Of a stretch of 64,000 nt of DNA, positions 5,434 to 35,030 are shown piece after piece. The first letter of the stretch is position 1. The number at the start of each line of letters is the position of its first letter. The notes beneath the pieces are model-generated. The model was not told where the DNA came from. It worked only from the letters and a program-made list of their open reading frames with translations, and did not search any database. The position numbers and the translations under genes were made by a program. This DNA comes from Candidatus Binatus soli (GTDB lineage Bacteria > Desulfobacterota > Binatia > Binatales > Binataceae): positions 8,664-72,663 of the forward strand of contig DLMJ01000005.1 of assembly GCA_002479255.1 (NCBI GenBank). The letters are read 5' to 3'.

Positions 5434-8352
5434 TCAGGCCCCTCCTTTCTCGCGATAGAGATCGCGTAGATACGTGATAGCTGGTTGCGTGTTGAGTTCT
5501 TCCAGCGCGCGATAGTTGCGCAGCTTGTTGTCCTCGCGCCGGCGCATCATCGCGCTCGCGGGCTCGTTGCTGTCGCCAAACGTGATTGCGCGCGTCGGGC
5601 ACGCCTGCTGGCAGGCCGTGACGATCTCGCCGTCGCGCAGCTCGCGATCTTCAGTCCGCGCGTTGAGCTCGGCGAATTGGATTCGCTGCACGCAGAACGT
5701 GCATTTCTCCATCACGCCGGCGCCGCGCACCGTCACGTCGGGATTGAGTTGCAGGTTCAGCGGCGCGGGCCATTCCGGCACGAACCAGTTGAATCGGCGC
5801 ACCTTGTACGGACAGTTGTTTTCGCAATAGCGCGTGCCGACGCATCGATTGTAAACTTGGCCGTTGATCCCTTCTTCGGTGTGATACGACGCAAACACCG
5901 GGCAGACCGGCTCGCACGGCGCGTGATCGCACTGCTGACACAGCATCGGCGCGAGGTAGAGCTGCGGCGCTTGCGCCGCTTCCCCGGCCGGCGGGAAGTA
6001 ACGCTCGATGCGAATCCACGACATGATTCGGCCCCGATCGACCCCGTCCTTGCCTACCGTCGGGACATTGTTCTCCGCGTAGCACGCGGTCACGCACGCG
6101 CTGCATCCGGTGCACGCATTGACGTCGATCGTCATGCCCCATTTGTGCCGGGAATATTTCCAGGGCGGGTACATTTCGTACGGCCCGGTGACTTCTTCGG
6201 CCTCGCTCCTGGGAACCACGCCGCGCGCCAACTGCTCGATACTCATCGCCTCGACGATCGATCGGCCCATCATGTCGCTCTTGCCCAGCGGTGAAACGAG
6301 CGTGCGCGTCTTGCCGGTCGCGCGCGCGGTCGCGGCGGCACTGGCCGCGCCCGCCGCCAATATCGCCCACGCATTTGCGCCGACGTCTTTTGCATAACGG
6401 CCGTACGCGCGGTGCCCCTGTCCCAAAGGAACCGCGATCACACCCGGACGAACAGTGCTCTCCACCAGGACCGGCGCCTCGATCGCGCCGTGCTCCGTTT
6501 TGATCTCGATGACGTCGTCCTTGGCGACGCCGAGTTTGCGCGCCGTCTCGGGATGGATCTCGGCCCAGCTGTCCCACACGATCTGCGTGACCGGCTCGGG
6601 CAATTCCTGCAGCCACGGCTTGTCCGCGCCGCGGCCGTCGTAAAGGAAAATGTGTGGATAGGCGTAAACGGAAAGTTCCGACTGAGCCGCGGCCGGTACG
6701 GGCGCCTTGAACGCAGACGTGTCGAGGCTGAGCGCCGAGAGATGCTGTTCCTCGAACAATCCGCCTTCGCGCCGCACGCTTACCCAGAAATCTTCGGGAT
6801 CCGCGCCGTCTGCCTTGAGAGCCAGCGCCAGCCATTCAGCTTTGACTGCCTCCGCAGCGCTCGCCCACGGAAGTTTCGCGCTCGACGATCCCGCGGCTGC
6901 CGCAAGCAGGATATCGCCGACCGGCTTGCTGTCGAACACCGGCTGCATCACCGGCTGTCCCAGTCCGCGGATTCCCGCGCGCGGCGCCGTGTCACGCCAT
7001 GCTTCGAGCGGATGATGCGCTGGCAGGAGAAGACTCGCCATCGCGGCGGTCTCGTCCGGCACGCCTCCCGCCCACACGACGAACGGAACTTTCTGGATCG
7101 CCTCGGCTACTCGCGCCGACGCGGGCATCGTGAAGACCGGATTTGCGCCCGCGATGAACACCGCATCGATCTTGCCGCCGCGCATCGCGTCAACCGCCGC
7201 GTCCACTTCATCCGGCGTGCTGGTCTCTTCGGCCGGCGAGCCTTCGAGGAACATTACGGTCTTGCCGAAATTGCCGGTGACCGCATTGAGGATCATCGCC
7301 GCAAGATGAGCCGACGAATCGTTCGTGCCCGCGATCGCCAGCGCGCCTTCGGCCCTGCCGAACGTCTCGCCGAGCCTGGTAATGGTTTCCACCGGCACGC
7401 CGGTCCGCGCGCTCGTGGCGACTGGATCGAAATTCTCGACCGCCTTGGTTAGCGCCGCGAGATCGAAGCCCGAGTTCTGCGAAACCCAGCGCTGCTTGAC
7501 GAGAACGTTGAGCACGCTCCACGCAACATCGGCTTCCACGCCCGGAGCAGTCGCAATCCAGTCGTCGCACTTCGACGCCGTCATGCTGAGCCGCGGGCCG
7601 ACGTAAGTGGCGCGGCCAATGGTCAGCGTGCCGCGCCGCTCATGCGGTGTGCGGAACAGCGAGTATTGGCGCGCGAGTTCCACCGGAGATTGCCAGGTCT
7701 CGAGAAAGTCCGCACCGAAGGAAATCAGCACTTCGGCCTGATCGATTCGATACGACGGCAGATCGCGCCGGCCAAAGATCGTTTTCGCCGCAACCCGCGC
7801 CGGTTCCTGGTTGATGGCCTCGTAAAATATCGCGCGCGACGAGCCATAAGCGCCGACAAACGCGAGCGCGATTTTCCTGAAGGTCGGGCCCTGCGGCGAA
7901 CCGAAGAACGCGACGCGATCCTTGCCCCCCTTCGACGCCGCCGCCAGCCTGTCGCCCAGCATTTTGTCCGCTTGGTCCCACGAAACGGTCCGGATCGCAC
8001 CGTCGTCGCCGCGAACCTGCGGATGCGCAAGGCGATCGGGATTGTACAGACCTTGCAGCGCCGCCTGTCCCCGGGCGCACAAAGAACCCTGACCAATCGG
8101 ATCGGCCGGATTTCCCTCCAGCTTGACGACGCGCCCTTCCCGGATTCGCGCCACCACACCGCATCCCGCCGGGCACTCCGAACACGTCGTGGCAAAAAAA
8201 CTCGGCACGCCGGGGACTACGTTCTCATCGGGCACCACGTAAGGGATCAGCTGCCTCGCCGCCGGCTCGCAGCCAGGGATCGCCGCCGCCGCACCCGCAG
8301 TCGCGGCCAGCTTGATGAATGATCGCCTGGATATCGACGGTCCCTCGCGCAT
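5434..8352 (-). CDS. actB: Alternative Complex III subunit ActB (fused molybdopterin-oxidoreductase-like domain plus 4Fe-4S ferredoxin domain, Tat-exported)
   Basis: 972 aa. Twin-arginine signal (SRRSFIKLAATAGAAAAIPG), Cys-rich N-terminal FeS motif (CSECPAGCG), large MopB-like core, and C-terminal multiple CxxCxxCxxxCP ferredoxin motifs (CTGCSACVTAC; CQQCDHAPCEPVCP; CENNCPYKVRRFN; CQQACP). Confidence 0.85.
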   Translation of the reverse strand: MREGPSISRRSFIKLAATAGAAAAIPGCEPAARQLIPYVVPDENVVPGVPSFFATTCSECPAGCGVVARIREGRVVKLEGNPADPIGQGSLCARGQAALQGLYNPDRLAHPQVRGDDGAIRTVSWDQADKMLGDRLAAASKGGKDRVAFFGSPQGPTFRKIALAFVGAYGSSRAIFYEAINQEPARVAAKTIFGRRDLPSYRIDQAEVLISFGADFLETWQSPVELARQYSLFRTPHERRGTLTIGRATYVGPRLSMTASKCDDWIATAPGVEADVAWSVLNVLVKQRWVSQNSGFDLAALTKAVENFDPVATSARTGVPVETITRLGETFGRAEGALAIAGTNDSSAHLAAMILNAVTGNFGKTVMFLEGSPAEETSTPDEVDAAVDAMRGGKIDAVFIAGANPVFTMPASARVAEAIQKVPFVVWAGGVPDETAAMASLLLPAHHPLEAWRDTAPRAGIRGLGQPVMQPVFDSKPVGDILLAAAAGSSSAKLPWASAAEAVKAEWLALALKADGADPEDFWVSVRREGGLFEEQHLSALSLDTSAFKAPVPAAAQSELSVYAYPHIFLYDGRGADKPWLQELPEPVTQIVWDSWAEIHPETARKLGVAKDDVIEIKTEHGAIEAPVLVESTVRPGVIAVPLGQGHRAYGRYAKDVGANAWAILAAGAASAAATARATGKTRTLVSPLGKSDMMGRSIVEAMSIEQLARGVVPRSEAEEVTGPYEMYPPWKYSRHKWGMTIDVNACTGCSACVTACYAENNVPTVGKDGVDRGRIMSWIRIERYFPPAGEAAQAPQLYLAPMLCQQCDHAPCEPVCPVFASYHTEEGINGQVYNRCVGTRYCENNCPYKVRRFNWFVPEWPAPLNLQLNPDVTVRGAGVMEKCTFCVQRIQFAELNARTEDRELRDGEIVTACQQACPTRAITFGDSNEPASAMMRRREDNKLRNYRALEELNTQPAITYLRDLYREKGGA

Positions 8353-24158: not shown

Positions 24159-25322
24159 TTACTGATTGCTGAGGATAAGCGTCGCGCCCGAATGGCGCGT
24201 GCCGAGCGCGCCGCCGGTGCCGTGCGCGAGTGCGATTTCGCAATCCTTGACCTGCCGCGGACCGCATTCGCCGCGCAGTTGCTTGGCCGCCTCGATCACC
24301 AGGAAGATTCCGCGCATCCCCGGATGGTTCGACGACAACCCCCCGCCGTCGGTGTTGATCGGAAATTCGCCGTCGAAGCGCAGCCTTCCGCCCGACACGA
24401 ACGCGCCGCCTTCGCCGCGCTTGCAAAAGCCGAGATTCTCCAGCGTGGCCAGCACGGTGATCGTGAACGAGTCGTAGATCATCGCCATGTCGATGTCCTT
24501 GTGCGCGACGCCCGCGCGCTCGAACGCAAGCCGGCCCGATTGCGCCGCCGCGATTTCCAGAAAATCGCGCTGCCCGCGCGCCGCGTGCCGCACCGTCTCG
24601 CCCGCGCCAAGAATGTAAACCGGCTTCTTCTTCAAATCGCGCGTGCGCTCCGCCGACGTGATCACCAGCGCGCCGCCGCCGTCGCTGATGATGCAACAAT
24701 CCAGCAGATGCAGCGGCGACGAGATGATTCGCGACGCGAGTACGTCTTCCACCGTGATCGGGTCTCGGTACTTCGCGGCCGGATTCATGGACGCATGCAG
24801 CCGCGTCGTGACCGCTATTTCGGCCAGCTGCGCCGAGGTCGTCCCGTAGTCATGCATATGGCGCTGCGCGACCATCGCATACGCCCCGACGGTCGTCGGC
24901 CCGAACGGAATCTCGTACTGGTCGCACGGATCGCCTGCGCCGCCGCGTTCTCCGCCCGTGCCAATCGCAAACCGCGACGAGGCCGCCGTCGAGCCATAGA
25001 CCACCACGCATACGTCGCACAGCCCGGCGTGGATGGCGGCCGCCGCGTGCGCGGTGTGCGCCACGAACGACGACCCGCCGATCGAAGTCGAGTCGACAAA
25101 GTTCGGCGTCAGGTTCAGGTAATCGCAGAAGCCGACGATTCCCATCCCGCTCATCCCCATTCCGGTCGTGCACAGCCCGTTTACGTCCTTGATCGTCAAC
25201 CCGGCGTCGTCCAGCGCGCCACGCAGGCTCTCCGCCATTATCTGAAACAGACTTTTGTCCGGCGCGAAGCGGGTGGGATGCTCGAACACGCCGGCCACTG
25301 CGGTTTTGCGGCTTAAACTCAT
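24159..25322 (-). CDS. thiolase-like protein, SCP-x / Ltp2 / benzoylsuccinyl-CoA thiolase (BbsB)-type (lipid-transfer-protein thiolase)
   Basis: 387 aa thiolase fold with C-terminal GGGLSSNHPGMRG...AHGTGG motifs, lacking the classical catalytic Cys context of biosynthetic thiolases, and paired with DUF35. Confidence 0.75.
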   Translation of the reverse strand: MSLSRKTAVAGVFEHPTRFAPDKSLFQIMAESLRGALDDAGLTIKDVNGLCTTGMGMSGMGIVGFCDYLNLTPNFVDSTSIGGSSFVAHTAHAAAAIHAGLCDVCVVVYGSTAASSRFAIGTGGERGGAGDPCDQYEIPFGPTTVGAYAMVAQRHMHDYGTTSAQLAEIAVTTRLHASMNPAAKYRDPITVEDVLASRIISSPLHLLDCCIISDGGGALVITSAERTRDLKKKPVYILGAGETVRHAARGQRDFLEIAAAQSGRLAFERAGVAHKDIDMAMIYDSFTITVLATLENLGFCKRGEGGAFVSGGRLRFDGEFPINTDGGGLSSNHPGMRGIFLVIEAAKQLRGECGPRQVKDCEIALAHGTGGALGTRHSGATLILSNQ

Positions 25323-29999: not shown

Positions 30000-30245
30000 A
30001 TGCCCGCAATAGAACCGCCCGACCCTTCCGAACTCGAGGAAATATTCGCCAGCATCGATCCGACTCCGGTCCGGATGGCTCATGACTACCTGAACGAAGC
30101 CGGCATCGAATCATTCGTCTTTGACGCCGGATCGTCGCGGCTGCTCGGTACGACCGCCGCGGTGCCGACCCGCCTGATGGTTCATCGGGACGCCGCCAAA
30201 GACGCGCGCGACCGCTTAAACGAACTCGGCTTCACGGACAAGTGA
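30000..30245 (+). CDS. small DUF2007-like protein (putative signal-transducing, PII-like fold)
   Basis: 81 aa, acidic, resembles the DUF2007 family; weak assignment. Confidence 0.45.
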   Translation: MPAIEPPDPSELEEIFASIDPTPVRMAHDYLNEAGIESFVFDAGSSRLLGTTAAVPTRLMVHRDAAKDARDRLNELGFTDK

Positions 30246-31840
30246 TCGTACACAACCGGAATCCTGGATGGTGGCAGCGCGCCGTTTTCTACCAGATCTA
30301 TCCGCGCTCGTTTGCCGATTCGAACGGAGACGGTGTCGGCGATCTCGACGGCGTTACCGCGCATCTCGACTATCTCAATGACGGTACGCCGAACTCGCTC
30401 GGCATCGACGCCATCTGGCTGAACCCCATCAATCCGTCGCCGCTCGACGACTGGGGCTACGACATCAGCGACTATTGCGGCATCCACCCGGAACTCGGCG
30501 ATCTCGCCGCCTTCGATCGCCTGGTTGCACAGGCGCATCGCCGCGGGATACGCGTGATCGTCGATCTGGTGCCCAACCATACCTCGAATCAGCATCCATG
30601 GTTCGTCGAGTCGCGCGCGTCGCGCGCCAATCCCAAACGCGACTGGTACATCTGGATTCCCGGCCTGCCGGATCGTCCGCCCAGCAACTGGCAGAGCTAC
30701 TTCGGCGGCGATGCGTGGAAGTACGACCCCGCCACCGCGTCATGGTACCTGCACACGTTCCTCGAGGAGCAGCCCGACCTGAATTATCGAAATCCCCAAG
30801 TGGTCGAGGCAATTCACGACGTCATCCGGTTCTGGCTCGATCGCGGCGCTGACGGTTTTCGCATCGACGTGATCCAGGGGCTCATCAAGGATGACCAGCT
30901 CCGCGACAATCCGGTCCGGGCCGAGCACGACCCCGACATCCCGTGGTACGCGGAGGGCACGCAGGATCCGCTCTACAGTTCGGACCGGCCCGAGGTTCAC
31001 GAAATCATTCGCGGGTTGCGCCGCGTCACCGACAGTTACGAACAGCGGATGATGGTCGGCGAGACGTGGCCGCGCGAGCAGGAACGGCTGGCGGACTATC
31101 TGCGGCCCGACGAACTTCAGCTCGCGTTCAACTTTCGCTTTCTGCTCGCGCACTACGACGCGCGCCGCTTCCGGGCCGCAATCGAGCTGACGGAAAAGAC
31201 CTTCGGACCCGGCGCGTGGCCCACCTGGACGCTCTCGAATCACGATTTCCCGCGCCATATCTCGCGCTACTCGTACGATGGCGACGGTGACGCACGCGCC
31301 CGCGTCGCTGCGGTGATGATCATGGCTTTGCGCGGCACGCCCTTCATTTACTACGGCGAAGAAATCGGGATGCGCGAAGCGGAAATTCCCGCCGGTCGCA
31401 AACTCGATCCGGTCGGACGCGACGGTTGCCGCTCGCCGATGCAATGGAGCGGCGCCCGCAACGGCGGATTCTCCGCGAACGCGAGGACATGGCTGCCGTG
31501 CGGAGACTTCAAGGCGGTCAACGTCGCACGCCAGTTGAACGATCCGCACTCGATGCTCTCGCTCTATCGCCGGCTGATCCAAATCCGCAAATCAACCCCG
31601 GCGCTGACCGAGGGCAGCTATCGCGCCCTGGACAGCGCGCCCGAAGATTGTCTCGTGTTCCATCGCGATACGCCCGCGCAGCACATTGTCGTCGCGCTGA
31701 ATTTCACCGCCGAGCCACGCGAGATCGATTTGCCCGCGGGCAAAATCATTCTGAGCACGATTGCCGCCGGGCGGGCCGAGTCCACGAAATCTCCCCTGCG
31801 GCTGGGCCCAAACGAAGCCGTCATCGTGGAAGCCGGCTGA
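30242..31840 (+). CDS. glycoside hydrolase family 13 alpha-glucosidase / oligo-1,6-glucosidase / trehalose-synthase-like enzyme
   Basis: WWQRAVFYQIYPRSFADSNGDGVGDLDGV..., GIRVIVDLVPNHTS, GADGFRIDV, and YYGEEIGM motifs of GH13 subfamily alpha-glucosidases. Confidence 0.85.
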   Translation: MIVHNRNPGWWQRAVFYQIYPRSFADSNGDGVGDLDGVTAHLDYLNDGTPNSLGIDAIWLNPINPSPLDDWGYDISDYCGIHPELGDLAAFDRLVAQAHRRGIRVIVDLVPNHTSNQHPWFVESRASRANPKRDWYIWIPGLPDRPPSNWQSYFGGDAWKYDPATASWYLHTFLEEQPDLNYRNPQVVEAIHDVIRFWLDRGADGFRIDVIQGLIKDDQLRDNPVRAEHDPDIPWYAEGTQDPLYSSDRPEVHEIIRGLRRVTDSYEQRMMVGETWPREQERLADYLRPDELQLAFNFRFLLAHYDARRFRAAIELTEKTFGPGAWPTWTLSNHDFPRHISRYSYDGDGDARARVAAVMIMALRGTPFIYYGEEIGMREAEIPAGRKLDPVGRDGCRSPMQWSGARNGGFSANARTWLPCGDFKAVNVARQLNDPHSMLSLYRRLIQIRKSTPALTEGSYRALDSAPEDCLVFHRDTPAQHIVVALNFTAEPREIDLPAGKIILSTIAAGRAESTKSPLRLGPNEAVIVEAG

Positions 31841-32012
31841 ACTTTCCAGTTTGCGCGCCGCCACTTCCGTTCATAGGATCACCGCCGATCGGGCAATTTC
31901 TACCATCCGTTGGTACTGTCTCAGTTTGGGACTCGGCTCCGGGTAGGAAGTGGACCTTAGCGCTCATCCGCCCTCGGCGCTATGTTGACCGGAAAACCGC
32001 GTGAGGTGTTCC

Positions 32013-32477
32013 ATGATGCGGATTATCCAAGGCGACCTGAGCGACCAGCGCGTGGTCGATCTCCTGCATATTCACCTGACAACGTTTCCGTCCGGGCCTC
32101 CGGAGAGCGGGCACGCTTTGGACATCACCGGGCTTCAATCTTCTGACATCAGCTTTTGGACGATCTGGGAGGATGAAACGCTCTTGGGATTCGGTGCGCT
32201 GAAGCGGCTCTCGGCCGATCATGGTGAGGTCAAGTCGATGCATACCGCTCAGGCCATGCGGGGAAGGGGAGTGGGAACCGCGATGCTGCGGCACATCATT
32301 GCGACCGCGCGGGTAAGAGGCATGTCCCGCCTTAGCCTCGAGACAGGCACAAAGGATTATTATCGGCCAGCGCGCTCGCTTTACAGGAGCCATGGCTTCG
32401 TGGAGTGTCCGCCGTTCGCCGACTATGTGCTCGACCCGAACAGTGTCTTCATGTCGCTCGACCTGCACGAATCCTGA
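32013..32477 (+). CDS. GNAT family N-acetyltransferase
   Basis: Acetyl-CoA binding motif AMRGRGVGTAMLRHII. ORF begins with GTG at 32001; ATG at 32013. Confidence 0.7.
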   Translation: MMRIIQGDLSDQRVVDLLHIHLTTFPSGPPESGHALDITGLQSSDISFWTIWEDETLLGFGALKRLSADHGEVKSMHTAQAMRGRGVGTAMLRHIIATARVRGMSRLSLETGTKDYYRPARSLYRSHGFVECPPFADYVLDPNSVFMSLDLHES

Positions 32478-32497
32478 TCCGGAGGTCCACTCAGGGC

Positions 32498-32529
32498 GTG
32501 AAAGCCGAATGTGAAACTGAGACACTACC
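32498..32529. repeat. copy 1 of a ~32-bp direct repeat (gtgaaagccgaatgtgaaactgagacactacc)
   Basis: Read directly. Copy 2 at 33293-33324 (ctgaaagccgaatgtgaaactgggacactacc); 30/32 identical, both in the same orientation. Confidence 0.8.
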
Positions 32530-32570
32530 CGTCGTCGCGTTGGCGAGAAGTCGGCTGTGAAGAGGGGCGT

Positions 32571-33092
32571 ATGTCTGAAATTCAAACCAGGCACTTGGTT
32601 CTTCGACAATTCAGAGATTCCGACGTCGACCCGCTATACGAGATTCAAGGCGACCGGGAGTACATGAGGTTCACCTTCTGCGCAGAATCCAGAGCGGTAT
32701 GTGAGACCTGGCTTCGTCGATATGCTGAGAGCCGGCGCGTAAATGGCTTTGCTCCGTGGACGATAGTGCTCCGCTCGGACGATCGTGTGATCGGATGGGG
32801 AGGGCTGAATATCGATCCTAAGGCGCCTGAATGGGGCCCCGAGGTGAGCTACTTCATCCACCCGGCGTATCAAGGTCGAGGATTCGCTACCGAGCTCGTG
32901 CATTGCTCTCTGCAGTACGGGTTCAACGACTTGCAGCTGAAGCGGATCGGCGCATTCGCGATGCCGGAGAACGAAGCCTCCATCAGGGTTCTTACAAAGT
33001 GCGGGTTCAAATTCCTTCGGTACGAACCGGCACTTCGTCGCAACCACTACGAGTTAGGGGCAGAGGAGTGGACACCGCCGACCGAAAATTGA
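32571..33092 (+). CDS. GNAT family N-acetyltransferase (RimJ/RimL-like)
   Basis: HLVLRQFRDSDVDPLYEI...VIGWGGL...QGRGFATELV...AFAMPENEASIRVLTKCGF. Start MSEIQTRH at 32571; the ORF from 32511 would read through repeat copy 1. Confidence 0.75.
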   Translation: MSEIQTRHLVLRQFRDSDVDPLYEIQGDREYMRFTFCAESRAVCETWLRRYAESRRVNGFAPWTIVLRSDDRVIGWGGLNIDPKAPEWGPEVSYFIHPAYQGRGFATELVHCSLQYGFNDLQLKRIGAFAMPENEASIRVLTKCGFKFLRYEPALRRNHYELGAEEWTPPTEN

Positions 33093-33126
33093 CGAAATGC
33101 CTTTAGACTTAAGATTTCCCAGAAAC

Positions 33127-33507
33127 TCACGCCGCCTGTTTCTCGCGCTCGGCGATGAAGCGCTGGATTTCCTCGGCTTTGAATCGGACGTAATGGCCCA
33201 ATCTGATGGATGGAAGAGTGCCAAGTCTCGCTTGCTCTCGGACCCACGATTCGGGGACATCGAATAGCTTCGCGACCTGAGGAGCTCCAGGCCTGAAAGC
33301 CGAATGTGAAACTGGGACACTACCATCCGTGGTGGTTTTGGGACGGATGCTCTCTAGGGGTAGTTTCGTTCCGTCAGAAATTATTTCTGCTGGAAGCGGG
33401 GCTCGCCCGATTTCAGGCGAGCCCAGCGAGTACGGGATATCCTGGCGATTGACCATAGCGTACGCATAGCACGCCAAATCCCGGCGGGGGCAGGCTGAAT
33501 AGTTCAT
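33127..33507 (-). CDS. excisionase-family HTH protein, possibly degenerate. The C-terminal 55 aa are Xis-like; the N-terminal 70 aa are of doubtful coding quality and overlap repeat copy 2
   Basis: C-terminal VAKLFDVPESWVREQARLGTLPSIRLGHYVRFKAEEIQRFIAEREKQ matches the Xis/HTH_17 pattern. No ATG/GTG/TTG start lies close to the HTH; the N-terminal region contains several DNA hairpins. Confidence 0.45.
   Translation of the reverse strand: MNYSACPRRDLACYAYAMVNRQDIPYSLGSPEIGRAPLPAEIISDGTKLPLESIRPKTTTDGSVPVSHSAFRPGAPQVAKLFDVPESWVREQARLGTLPSIRLGHYVRFKAEEIQRFIAEREKQAA
33293..33324. repeat. copy 2 of the ~32-bp direct repeat flanking the second GNAT gene
   Basis: See copy 1. Followed by inverted repeats catccgt...acggatg and gggctcgcc...ggcgagccc. 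Confidence 0.8.
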
Positions 33508-33552
33508 CCCCCAAATCCGGTTAATCGAAACCGAACCAGTGCCAAAAGAAAG

Positions 33553-33580
33553 CGACGGGCCATCGGCCCGCCGCCTTCGA
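33553..33580 (-). terminator. probable rho-independent terminator of glnA
   Basis: cgggccatcggcccg hairpin followed on the minus strand by a T-rich tract (tcgctttcttttgg). Confidence 0.5.
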
Positions 33581-33602
33581 TCTGACGATTGACTATCCCT
33601 GC

Positions 33603-35030
33603 TTACGCGTCGTAGTAGAGCGCGAATTCGTACGGATGCGGCCGCAGGCGAATCGCGCTGACTTCGTTCGCCATCTTGTAATCGATCCAGGTCTCGATCA
33701 GGTCCTCGGTAAAGACATCGCCCTTGAGCAGGAACTCGTGATCCTTCTTCAGGTTGGCCAGTGATTCCTCGAGCGACGCGGGCATGCTCGGCACCTCGGC
33801 CAACTCGGCCGGCGTAAGTGCATAGATGTCCTTGTCGAGCGGCTGGCCCGGATCGAGCCGGCGCTGAATTCCGTCGAGCCCCGCCATCAGCATCGCGGAG
33901 AACGCGAGATACGGATTGCAGGTCGGGTCGGGGAAGCGTACTTCGATTCGCTTGGCCTTCGGCGACGGCGAGTACATCGGGATTCGCACCGAGGCCGAGC
34001 GGTTGCGCGACGAGTACGCCAGGTTGATCGGCGCCTCGAAGCCCGGCACCAGCCGGCGATACGAGTTGGTGCCCGGACAGGTGAAAGCCGCCAGCGTCGG
34101 CGCGTGATGCAGGATGCCCGCGATGTAGTGCATCCCAAGTTCCGACATCCCGGCGTAGCCGTTGCCGGCGAACAGGGGAGTGTCACCCTTCCAGATGCTC
34201 TGATGCGTGTGCATGCCGGTGCCATTGTCGCCGAAGATCGGCTTGGGCATGAAGGTGGCAGTCATCCCATGGCGCACCGCGACGTTCTTGACGATGTATT
34301 TGTACCAGGTCAGCCAGTCGGACATTTTGGTCAGCGTCTGAAAGCGCATGTCGATTTCAGCCTGGCCTGCGGTGGCGACTTCGTGATGCTGTTTCTCGAC
34401 GCGGATACCTACCCGCTCCATCTCGAGCACCATCTCGGTGCGGATGTCCTGCAGGGTGTCCACCGGCGGGACCGGGAAGTAGCCGGCTTTGTTCTTGACC
34501 TTGAAGCCCAGGTTGGCGCCTTCCTTGACCGCGCCCTCGCGCCCGCTGTTCCAGTTACCTTCGTTCGAGTCGATGTAGTAGTAGCTCGAATTCTGCGTGG
34601 TGTCGTAGCGCAGCGAGTCGAAGATAAAAAACTCCGGTTCGGGTCCGAAGTACGCCGAGTCGCCGATGCCGGTGGTCTTCAAATAGGCTTCGGCCTTGCG
34701 CGAGATATTACGCGGGTCGCGTGTGTAGTCGGCGCGGGTGATCGGATCGGAGATGTTGGCGATCATACTCAGCGTGGGATCCTTGGTGAACGGATCCATC
34801 ACCGCCGTATCCGGATCGGGAATCACCAGCATGTCGCTGTTGTCGATCGCCTGCCAGCCGCGAATCGACGACCCGTCGAAGCCGAGGCCCTCGTCGAAGG
34901 GCGCTTCATCCTTGAACTCGGAGATCGGGGCAGTGAAATGCTGCCACGTGCCGAGCAGATCGATGAATTTCACATCGACCATCACCACGCCCTTATCCTT
35001 GATCATTTGCAGAACTTGTTTAGGCGTCAT
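33603..35030 (-). CDS. glnA: glutamine synthetase type I
   Basis: 475 aa; canonical GSI motifs ([47 protein letters not shown]) and adenylylation-site region. Confidence 0.9.

Follow-up and report, generated by a model that had tools for sequence, protein, structure and literature searches.

The window, that is, the whole 64-kb stretch of Candidatus Binatus soli DNA analyzed here, carries a block of 1,413 bp (31912-33324) whose neighbours are an alpha-amylase-family gene and glnA, and whose GC content is 55-60% versus 64-66% in the flanking genes. The content of the block, as assigned with Pfam, is limited to two GNAT genes and an HTH_17 fragment, and no transposase was found among them. GNAT1 (32013-32477, plus strand) encodes a 154-aa GCN5-related N-acetyltransferase (Acetyltransf_1, E 3.7e-15), a length on which the gene callers agreed, and it matched no NCBIfam equivalog at its cutoff. 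GNAT2 (32571-33092, plus strand) encodes a 173-aa RimJ/RimL-type N-acetyltransferase (Acetyltransf_3, E 2.7e-34). The third gene, excisionase-like (HTH_17) and located on the minus strand (33127-33285), is truncated at its 5' end and keeps only the last ~54 of ~131 codons. The edge of the native locus is marked by the intrinsic terminator of glnA (33545-33590, minus strand), consisting of a stem (33565-33553) followed by a T run.

Terminal repeats of the block

A sequence-only reading of this DNA had reported a direct repeat of 32 bp at 32498-32529 and 33293-33324, which proved to be real, with 30/32 identical positions in the same orientation and a similarity that reaches 40 nt (32490-32529 and 33285-33324, 36/40). 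Its 27-nt core gave two matches in the window at up to three mismatches, with none expected from 100 shuffles, and three sites at up to five mismatches, with none in 200 shuffles. The third site, overlooked in that reading, is an inverted copy (31912-31938) that is 81% complementary to 32503-32529. The three copies correspond to a left terminal inverted repeat (IR) on the plus strand, A (31912-31958, GGTACTGTCTCAGTTT...AGTGGACCT), and two right terminal IRs on the minus strand, B (32483-32529, containing copy 1 of the direct repeat) and C (33285-33324, containing copy 2). A and B form an inverted-repeat pair, agreeing at 15/16 positions of the tip and sharing the inner motif GTGGACCT, while A and C agree at 14/16 positions of the tip. 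The inner ~8 nt of the IR are missing from repeat C, and B and C have exactly the outer 40 nt in common up to the tip, diverging on both sides beyond. No further IR-like sites were detected in the 64-kb window, nor did a sigma-70 promoter scan around the IRs return any promoter.

The 618-bp unit, its host repeat and the insertion site

Left IR A, GNAT1 as cargo, and right IR B make up a unit of 618 bp (31912-32529). The locus L057 carries positions 31911-32523 at 90.6% identity, with a GNAT1 homologue that is 97% identical, between an Abhydrolase_1 (alpha/beta-hydrolase) ORF and the N-terminus of smc. The homology starts exactly at the start of A and ends at the tip of B, the flanks of L057 have no match in the window, and the copy is bordered there by its own duplication (AACTTGCT and AACGTGCT, 7/8). 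Judged from this comparison, the 618-bp A-GNAT1-B unit is a mobile module, the same unit being present at a second, unrelated locus; the window and L057 are the two known insertion sites of the GNAT cassette. The idea of an integrated cassette carrying a GNAT gene thus holds, except that the sequence-only reading had the second GNAT in mind, and the unit recurring elsewhere has the first. The same reading had considered that the repeat might be absent from relatives keeping the GNAT gene, and in L057 the repeat surrounds the GNAT1 homologue.

The complete block of 1,413 bp is nested in a single copy of a MITE-like repeat, between duplicated target bases. The 5' part of this repeat (33325-33543, minus strand) carries the terminal inverted repeat (TIR) GGCACTGGTTCGGTTT at 33543, where the MITE IR pattern matches, and a short 3' remnant (ACGGATGGTAGAAATTGCCC..., 31887-31911, minus strand) lies on the other side of the block, with the MITE tail missing beyond. 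An nhmmer model based on 39 copies from Binataceae aligned 33523->33320 of the window with model positions 39-242 (E 8.9e-68) and 31910->31891 with positions 232-251 (E 0.003). MITE homology begins at 33320-33321. Members of this family are ~300 bp long (about 295-345 bp), with 16-nt TIRs (GGyACTGGTTCAGTTT) and no consistent reading frame. Exact-pattern matches numbered 38 in nine Binataceae MAGs, with at least seven per MAG in several of them, and 40 copies were found in the related loci compared, each at E <=3.5e-69. Complete MITEs with the same end type are flanked by perfect 8-bp duplications, such as GCTGGCGG in L017 and TAATTTTC in L042. Recognisable terminal repeats are kept in only some copies, and conservation of the internal ~250 nt is unusually high (mean column identity 74%). 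The ~300-bp host repeat therefore has the features of a MITE, being small and non-coding, with TIRs, a target duplication and many copies per genome, and ~30 clusters of hypothetical proteins in databases result from its spurious translation. The conserved ~200 nt downstream of glnA were also considered as a single-copy ncRNA gene, which was rejected given the multiple copies, terminal repeats and 8-bp duplications. The first 16 nt of A and the 3' TIR of the MITE (GGTACTGGTTCAGTTT) are identical at 14/16 positions.

The target duplication lies directly outside the IR tips, with a left copy at 31905-31912 (ATCCGTTG, its last G common with the IR tip) and a right copy at 33325-33332 (ATCCGTGG), assigned by direct reading and by comparison with L046. 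The two copies agree at 7/8 positions, including a perfect 6-bp part (ATCCGT), and flank A and C, not A and B. The comparison with an empty site that the sequence-only reading had proposed could be made with the sister lineage L046, in which the same MITE copy is uninterrupted at an amylase-MITE-glnA locus (amylase 88% identical) and a single target copy is present. Against L046, the left flank of the window aligns up to 31912 and the right flank from 33320, and the reconstructed junction is collinear. This empty site also corrects the proposal that B and C are the cassette borders, as C (33324) is the true right border and the left border is A (31912). The window is homologous to the amylase-pepN spacer of L045 as far as ~31884-31886, and homology to both L045 and L046 resumes at the glnA terminator; the amylase-glnA interval is a rearrangement hot spot, and pepN was lost in the lineage of the window. 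In both insertions (window and L057), the duplication is imperfect (7/8), and the four to five target bases before it equal the right IR tip (CTACC and CCAC, respectively). The flanking identities thus reach 11-14 nt, which a simple staggered-cut model does not predict.

The extra segment and the competing explanations

Beyond the 618-bp module, a further 795 bp comprise GNAT2 as extra cargo, the 5'-truncated excisionase-like gene and the inner-truncated right IR C. At its 3' end, GNAT2 shares 94% identity with the DNA that immediately precedes the GNAT1 homologue of L055; no IR is present there, and the gene order is swapped, with GNAT2 directly upstream of the GNAT1 homologue. The GNAT2-GNAT1 spacer of L055 was tried as a decayed IR and gave an alignment score within the shuffled range, and a metagenome scan for the L055-type GNAT2-GNAT1 junction returned 0 matches. 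As the sequence-only reading had noted, copy 2 lies within the upstream part of a minus-strand ORF (33127-33507) whose C-terminal part is an Xis-type HTH, with residues 76-121 matching HTH_17. Full-length Xis-like homologues align with it over the C-terminus only (94-96% identity), the break falling between SA and PQVAK, and the DNA homology to them (33126-33285) stops at the inner edge of C. The suggestion that a recombination event had truncated an Xis gene was supported as regards the truncation, which falls exactly at the start of C. A full-length homologue sits among Phage_integrase genes, and in L005 and L006 the surroundings of the full-length xis gene contained no IR copies. The xis fragment is cargo and not machinery, because it is absent from the L057 copy. 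A GNAT toxin-antitoxin pair with the HTH gene was also rejected, as the HTH gene has lost its 5' part and comes from a 131-aa family found elsewhere among integrase genes.

The 32-bp repeats are, in our view, very probably two copies of the right terminal IR of a transposase-less mobile insertion cassette (MIC) that was inserted in a MITE. The site is an ordinary mobile-DNA footprint, not a regulatory RNA or an att site; the repeats that had been compared to att-like borders are indeed ends of an integrated mobile cassette, although both are right-end IRs and not attL and attR. A transposase encoded elsewhere in the genome would bind ends of the type GGyAsTG..CAGTTT, which the host MITE family and the cassette have in common, would cut the target with a stagger of ~8 bp, and would move whatever a left and a right IR enclose. 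Two routes could have led to a block with two right IRs: either A and the second right IR C mobilised the intervening DNA, as in a composite transposon, or passenger DNA with one right IR was added beside B. Since neither the window nor the related loci compared yielded a cognate transposase, we only infer mobilisation in trans. In 24/24 long contigs read per GNAT protein, the cassette was at the same locus, so there is no sign of current mobility, and the block in Candidatus Binatus soli is probably a fixed, immobile relic. When JGI metagenomes were scanned by exact pattern for IR copies elsewhere, with the outer flank limited to the bases A/C, there were 0 matches, as with the same IR pattern in viral contigs.

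The second of these routes concerns one step of the cassette explanation and is not an alternative to the transposon reading. It would have the B/C repeat made in place, with A-GNAT1-B inserted into the MITE first and a circular or linear molecule bearing GNAT2, the xis fragment and a single right IR joined later exactly at B, either by Campbell-type recombination through the ~40-bp IR homology or by a conservative addition like that of IS26 translocatable units, which leaves direct-orientation IR copies and the original target duplication outside the whole block. The position of the duplication around A and C agrees with this order of events, as does the existence of A-GNAT1-B alone in L057, and the identity of B and C over the outer 40 nt followed by divergence is what a crossover through the IR predicts. 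In addition, the MITE end GGCACTGGTTCAGT and the 14-bp IR of IS26/IS15-deltaI (GGCACTGTTGCAAA; PMC5328509) agree at 10/14 positions, and both families make 8-bp duplications. However, that resemblance, assessed by eye, is modest, no IS6-type transposase came to light, homologous recombination would have had a short stretch of 40 bp to act on, and an extra deletion is needed because C lacks the inner 8 nt and abuts the truncated gene; moreover, a composite formed elsewhere and moved once via A and C gives the same layout. Formation in place is thus possible but somewhat doubtful. A lower probability is given to the block being a remnant of an integrase-mediated integrative element, with CTACCATCCGT as the att core, the xis fragment as part of a former recombination module and the MITE as attB. 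The 11-nt CTACCATCCGT occurs without mismatch at both 31900-31910 and 33320-33330, a flanking identity of 12 nt is likewise seen in L057, and the Xis-type fragment lies beside the right border and has its full-length homologue among Phage_integrase genes. Nevertheless, a site-specific system should reuse one core, and the flanking identities differ (CTACCATCCGT versus CCACAACkTGCT in L057); no integrase is present in or adjoining the block, the block is bounded by long inverted repeats, with tips that match those of a MITE family making 8-bp duplications, and the xis fragment is missing from the L057 copy, all of which makes such a remnant very unlikely.

Two other explanations, in which the repeat would be functional sequence, are both extremely improbable. 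One of them, already contemplated in the sequence-only reading, takes the 32-mer of copy 2 as the coding sequence of a real, longer Xis-like protein, given that ORF 33127-33507 is uninterrupted and that a 109-aa version of it (P0001) was annotated by JGI on 27 contigs as an excisionase family ORF. However, full-length members of the family (~131 aa) have a different N-terminus, with 75 well-conserved residues unrelated to the ORF of the window; the upstream part of that ORF is MITE DNA, which other spurious ORFs read in different frames, switching after ...PKTTTDG; and the 32-mer recurs in non-coding DNA upstream of GNAT2. The annotated 109-aa "excisionase family" ORF is a chimera of MITE, IR and gene fragment. 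The other sees in the repeat and adjacent hairpins either a small RNA gene or a cis-regulatory RNA leader, riboswitch-like or an attenuator, that has been duplicated. The inverted repeats reported after copy 2 are both present (catccgt at 33324-33330 with acggatg at 33343-33349, and gggctcgcc...ggcgagccc at 33398-33424), B ends 41 nt upstream of the GNAT2 ATG (32571), and the minus-strand fold of 33280-33560 is more stable than that of shuffles (z = -3.0). Against this, the plus-strand fold is ordinary (z = -1.2), C as a leader has no downstream gene on its strand (plus), and the hairpins beside C are MITE sequence and belong to a dispersed repeat. In an RNAalifold analysis and a pair count on 40 MITE copies, there was almost no consensus structure (-5.5 kcal/mol, with a covariation term of -0.46 kcal/mol), the named hairpins were paired in 69.9% of cells versus 69.6% in shuffles, and the catccgt hairpin paired in only 59%, so that the suggested structure and covariation analysis revealed no covariation above shuffles. 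Rfam gave no match at gathering score over the window, nor at E up to 10 over 31700-33700, and ARAGORN found no tRNA or tmRNA at the site, which likewise leaves a tRNA, tmRNA or other small-RNA gene as integration target without a candidate there.

Within the preferred reading of an MIC inserted in a MITE, the long repeat is explained as ordinary transposon anatomy, and the annotation of a 27-contig "excisionase family" ORF of an abundant peat and soil bacterium can be corrected. This MITE family and the cargo cassettes with common ends constitute the first set of non-autonomous mobile elements documented in Candidatus Binatus. No new biological question is raised unless the hinted target preference or the cognate transposase proves unusual. 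Four features fall within ~10 nt in the MITE, namely the GNAT cassette insertion, insertions of one unrelated cassette family in two other genomes (L013 and L018) and the pepN deletion joint; together with the target bases that mimic the IR tip in both insertions, this clustering provides a hint of sequence-directed targeting. The ~300-nt Binataceae repeat may then be more than a MITE, acting as a preferred landing pad that accumulates cassettes, with IR-mimic targeting by a so far unnamed transposase family from this uncultured phylum and perhaps IS26-like addition of passengers, but we consider this broader proposal unlikely.

Comparison with known mobile elements

The block resembles integron cassettes in its small promoter-less cargo genes, which in integrons are often GNATs, with a similar and identically oriented repeat behind each one. 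However, neither RYYYAAC nor GTTRRRY, as expected for attC, was found on either strand within 31890-31975, 32470-32560 and 33270-33345, no integron integrase is present here, and the inverted partner repeat and target duplication of the block are not features of integron cassettes. An origin from the Tn3 family or its TIMEs was suggested by the ~40-nt IRs and the 6-bp duplication and was rejected, as the duplications made by the related MITEs are 8 bp long. The Tn3-type IRs of TIMEs measure 38 bp (GGGG...TAAG), a signature that the cassette IRs presumably lack. The likeness to TIMEs lies in the occurrence of miniature and cargo-carrying elements with common IRs (PMC4133298), here the MITE and the GNAT cassette with tips agreeing at 14/16 positions, and DNA that lies between miniature IR elements can be moved by them as a mosaic non-autonomous transposon (PMC4133298). 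In contrast, TIMEs make 5-6-bp duplications, the related MITEs here 8-bp ones, and the IR sequences differ in type.

Pseudo-compound transposons of the IS26/IS6 type are similar in that end repeats in direct orientation bracket passenger DNA and 8-bp duplications are made, and the first 7 nt of the IS15-deltaI IR are identical to the MITE end, GGCACTG (PMC5328509). The repeats here are, however, bare IRs of ~40-47 nt and not whole IS copies, the IR identity is only 10/14 (by eye) and no IS6-type transposase was seen; the match is a resemblance and not a membership. The closest parallel is with mic elements, defined as IR-bracketed, with no transposase nearby and usually with a target duplication (PMC3913671). 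As in MIC231 of Bacillus cereus and the qnrD and qnrS2 mic elements, passenger gene(s) lie between two imperfect IRs with no transposase inside or nearby, and a target-site duplication, a size of ~0.6-1.5 kb and a presumed mobilisation in trans by the transposase of a related IS are further points in common. The cassette differs from MIC231 in its IRs, which show no sequence relationship to those of IS231 (IS4 family), and also in its host, an uncultured Binatota lineage, in its extra right IR and extra cargo, and in being nested in a MITE. The cassette nonetheless has the imperfect IRs, the absence of a transposase inside or adjacent, and the (imperfect) target duplication of an MIC, together with an empty site and a second locus.

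Copies of the repeat and the genes between them

The 32-bp direct repeat described in the sequence-only reading (32498-32529 and 33293-33324, 30/32 identical, same orientation) is real, and its explanation is ordinary: the copies are the right ends of a non-autonomous GNAT cassette bounded by inverted repeats (IRs), which has one right end too many and lies inside a MITE in Candidatus Binatus soli. The similarity reaches 40 nt (32490-32529 and 33285-33324, 36/40), and a 27-nt core has two occurrences at up to three mismatches, with none in 100 shuffles. A third, inverted copy, missed in that reading, was detected by a repeat finder at 31912-31938, upstream of GNAT1 and 81% complementary to 32503-32529; at up to five mismatches, the 64-kb window has exactly these three sites, and 200 shuffles gave none. 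A is the inverted copy, starting at 31912 and pointing right; B and C both point left, with their tips at 32529 and 33324. A and B are alike at 15 of 16 tip positions and carry the same motif further in (GTGGACCT, positions ~40-47); C resembles B only over the outer 40 nt, beyond which an xis fragment begins.

The forward strand encodes two acetyltransferases, GNAT1 (32013-32477, Pfam Acetyltransf_1) and GNAT2 (32571-33092, Pfam Acetyltransf_3), neither of which reached an NCBIfam equivalog cutoff. After them comes a minus-strand ORF (33127-33507) whose match to HTH_17 is confined to residues 76-121. On either side of the block lie an alpha-amylase-family gene (30242-31840, +) and glnA (33603-35030, -), the latter with an intrinsic terminator at 33565-33553; the block has 55-60% GC, its neighbouring genes 64-66%. 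The window matches an ENA contig at 100% identity, and the amylase matches, also at 100%, a protein assigned by NCBI to Candidatus Binatus soli. Elsewhere in the window, ARAGORN called an 89-nt tRNA-Gln (anticodon ctg) at 24503-24591 (-), within long ORFs of both strands, which is probably a false positive because the Rfam gathering scan found no tRNA anywhere in the window.

The excisionase-like ORF is indeed degenerate, as had been proposed. Its homologues (~131 aa) possess a conserved N-terminal region of 75 residues and a C-terminal HTH, and the window copy aligns with them only at its end, over ~52-54 residues (94-96% identity), breaking between SA and PQVAK. DNA homology to two full-length genes spans 33126-33285, so the truncation point is the inner edge of C and only the C-terminal part is kept. 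A 14-kb contig carries a full-length homologue with integrase genes around it; the family belongs to integrative mobile elements. The 109-aa "excisionase family DNA binding protein" annotated by JGI at 33127-33456 (-) and present on 27 contigs (P0001) is a chimeric ORF in which the C-terminal third of an Xis-like gene is joined to right-IR and MITE DNA; other gene callers left it uncalled.

The host repeat and its hairpins

Several "hypothetical proteins", one of them located between topA and trmFO in another organism, match only the upstream part of ORF 33127-33507. The matching ORFs have ...CYAYAMVNRQD...PKTTTDG in common and then continue in different frames, so the conservation is at the DNA level. 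A conserved-core pattern gave 38 matches among Binataceae MAGs, several genomes each containing seven copies or more, and the aligned copies delimit an element of ~300 nt. Where a copy has kept both of its ends, these are terminal inverted repeats (GGCACTGGTTCAGTTT ... AAACTGAACCAGTACC) flanked by perfect 8-bp duplications of the target (GCTGGCGG at L017, TAATTTTC at L042). About 30 "hypothetical protein" clusters of public protein databases (P0026, P0031, P0039, and others; loci L007-L044) are the MITE core translated in varying frames. Upstream of many cores (L010, L011, L012, L014, L020, L021, L027, L039, L043, L044) lies a second shared module, with a REP-like palindrome (GCAGGGGTCAGCCCCTGC) and ...CGCGCAGGTGATTCTTCCTTCGTT replacing the terminal inverted repeat, so the repeat family is modular.

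The hairpins formerly assigned to a possible regulatory or riboswitch-like leader are MITE sequence. ARAGORN reported nothing at the repeat site, and neither did Rfam, at the gathering score over the whole window or at E up to 10 over 31700-33700. RNAalifold on 40 MITE copies yielded hardly any shared fold (-5.5 kcal/mol; covariation term -0.46), the named hairpins being paired in 69.9% of cells versus 69.6% in shuffles, and the catccgt/acggatg hairpin in only 59%, so that the suggested structure and covariation check gave no support. What lies here is a MITE-like repeat and not an RNA gene; these results, together with those on the Xis-like gene, exclude the leader. That the 32-mer is part of a longer real protein's coding sequence is likewise excluded by the Xis-like gene truncation, by homologues that differ N-terminally of the HTH, and by MITE conservation at the DNA level.

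Insertion, second site, and the extra segment

A MITE profile built from copies other than that of the window assigned 33523->33320 to model positions 39-242 (E 9e-68) and 31910->31891 to 232-251 (E 0.003), which means that the MITE is split, with 11 nt present on both sides. BLAST homology to the MITE begins exactly at 33320-33321. In L046, a sister lineage whose amylase is 88% identical, the same MITE copy is present at this locus without interruption; the left flank of the window aligns with it up to 31912 and the right flank from 33320, and the reconstructed empty site is collinear through the junction. The insertion borders are A and C, mutually inverted, and the bases just beyond their tips are ATCCGTTG (31905-31912) and ATCCGTGG (33325-33332), a 7/8 duplication of a target that is single in L046. 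The proposal of a small integrated cassette with att-like borders was thus correct as to the cassette, but its borders are A and C rather than the two direct repeats, and the att reading is unlikely. The A tip (GGTACTGTCTCAGTTT) is 14/16 identical to the MITE 3' terminal repeat; cassette and MITE therefore have an end type in common and probably a transposase too. No transposase was found in the window or the compared loci.

The closest non-identical GNAT1 homologue (97% aa) is on contig L057, which matches window 31911-32523, exactly A to B, at 90.6% DNA identity. Its flanks, an alpha/beta-hydrolase ORF and the smc N-terminus, have no match in the window or any compared locus, and the unit has its own duplication (AACTTGCT / AACGTGCT). 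A-GNAT1-B (618 bp) is the mobile module.

The right target duplication of the window lies after C, not B, so the 795-bp segment from B tip to C tip (GNAT2, xis fragment, and C) either moved between A and C or was added later at B. A and C could have mobilised the whole interval, an ability documented for miniature IR elements (PMC4133298); alternatively, the segment could have joined at B via IR homology or IS26-like conservative addition. At L055, a GNAT2 homologue is immediately followed by a GNAT1 homologue (87% aa), and the spacer contains neither an IR nor an IR-like sequence, so the cargo probably derives from a GNAT2-GNAT1 gene pair whose order was permuted in the window.

At each of the two insertions, the right IR tip recurs in the 4-5 target bases that precede the duplication (CTACC; CCAC), giving flanking identities of 11-14 nt, which may reflect target preference. 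An integrase-type att site is unlikely, as these identities differ from the window to L057, no integrase is present, and the L057 copy lacks the xis fragment. An integron attC was rejected, with no core sites.

History of the locus and comparison with known elements

In L045 (amylase 92% identical) and L047, pepN (M1 aminopeptidase) lies between the amylase gene and glnA, accompanied in L047 by an M48 peptidase, with no MITE or GNAT genes; homology to the window ends at the pepN start codon and resumes just past the MITE 5' terminal repeat. The likely order of events is that the MITE inserted beside the glnA terminator, that deletion of pepN and the MITE 3' tail produced the state common to L046 and the window, and that the cassette entered afterwards, in the Binatus soli lineage. 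Candidatus Binatus soli has lost pepN at this locus (31841-33545). Exact GNAT1 and GNAT2 proteins occur in ~200 blocks of the sequence collection, and 24/24 long contigs read for each represent the same locus as the window, so the block appears fixed, with no sign of current mobility. L046 also carries ~1 kb of extra DNA (6893-7913) between the MITE 5' end and the glnA terminator, with 164-aa retropepsin-like and 80-aa ORFs, bracketed by a ~30-nt direct repeat (ATCGAAACCGATCCGGCGCGCGC...AAAAGG).

Two MITE copies in different MAGs (L013:880-1470; L018:2437 onward) host a different nested cassette, with terminal repeats GGGAkTATATmC.TAACGCAATTTGG and a ~9-bp duplication (GAATTGCyC), inserted only ~10 nt from where the GNAT cassette entered; as cargo, the L013 copy carries a 120-aa protein that looks secreted, contains YGNQTY repeats, and matches no Pfam family. 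The MITE 3' truncation that accompanies the pepN deletion relative to L045 (window 31887-31891; L046 6661; model position ~251) coincides with these insertions, which suggests a fragile or preferred MITE site. The IR-like target bases and this crowding of independent events into ~10 nt of the MITE (GNAT cassette, L013/L018 cassette, pepN deletion joint) are the only unusual hints. A ~300-nt element at L011:3970-4270 (ends GGCACTGGAAACTG... / ...CAAACTGAACCAGTACC), with a small ORF within an AT-rich patch, may be another small cargo cassette of the same end family.

Mobile insertion cassettes (mic) have been described as IR-bracketed elements lacking a transposase and producing a target duplication (PMC3913671), and the GNAT cassette, through its second site at L057 and its empty site, fits this description.
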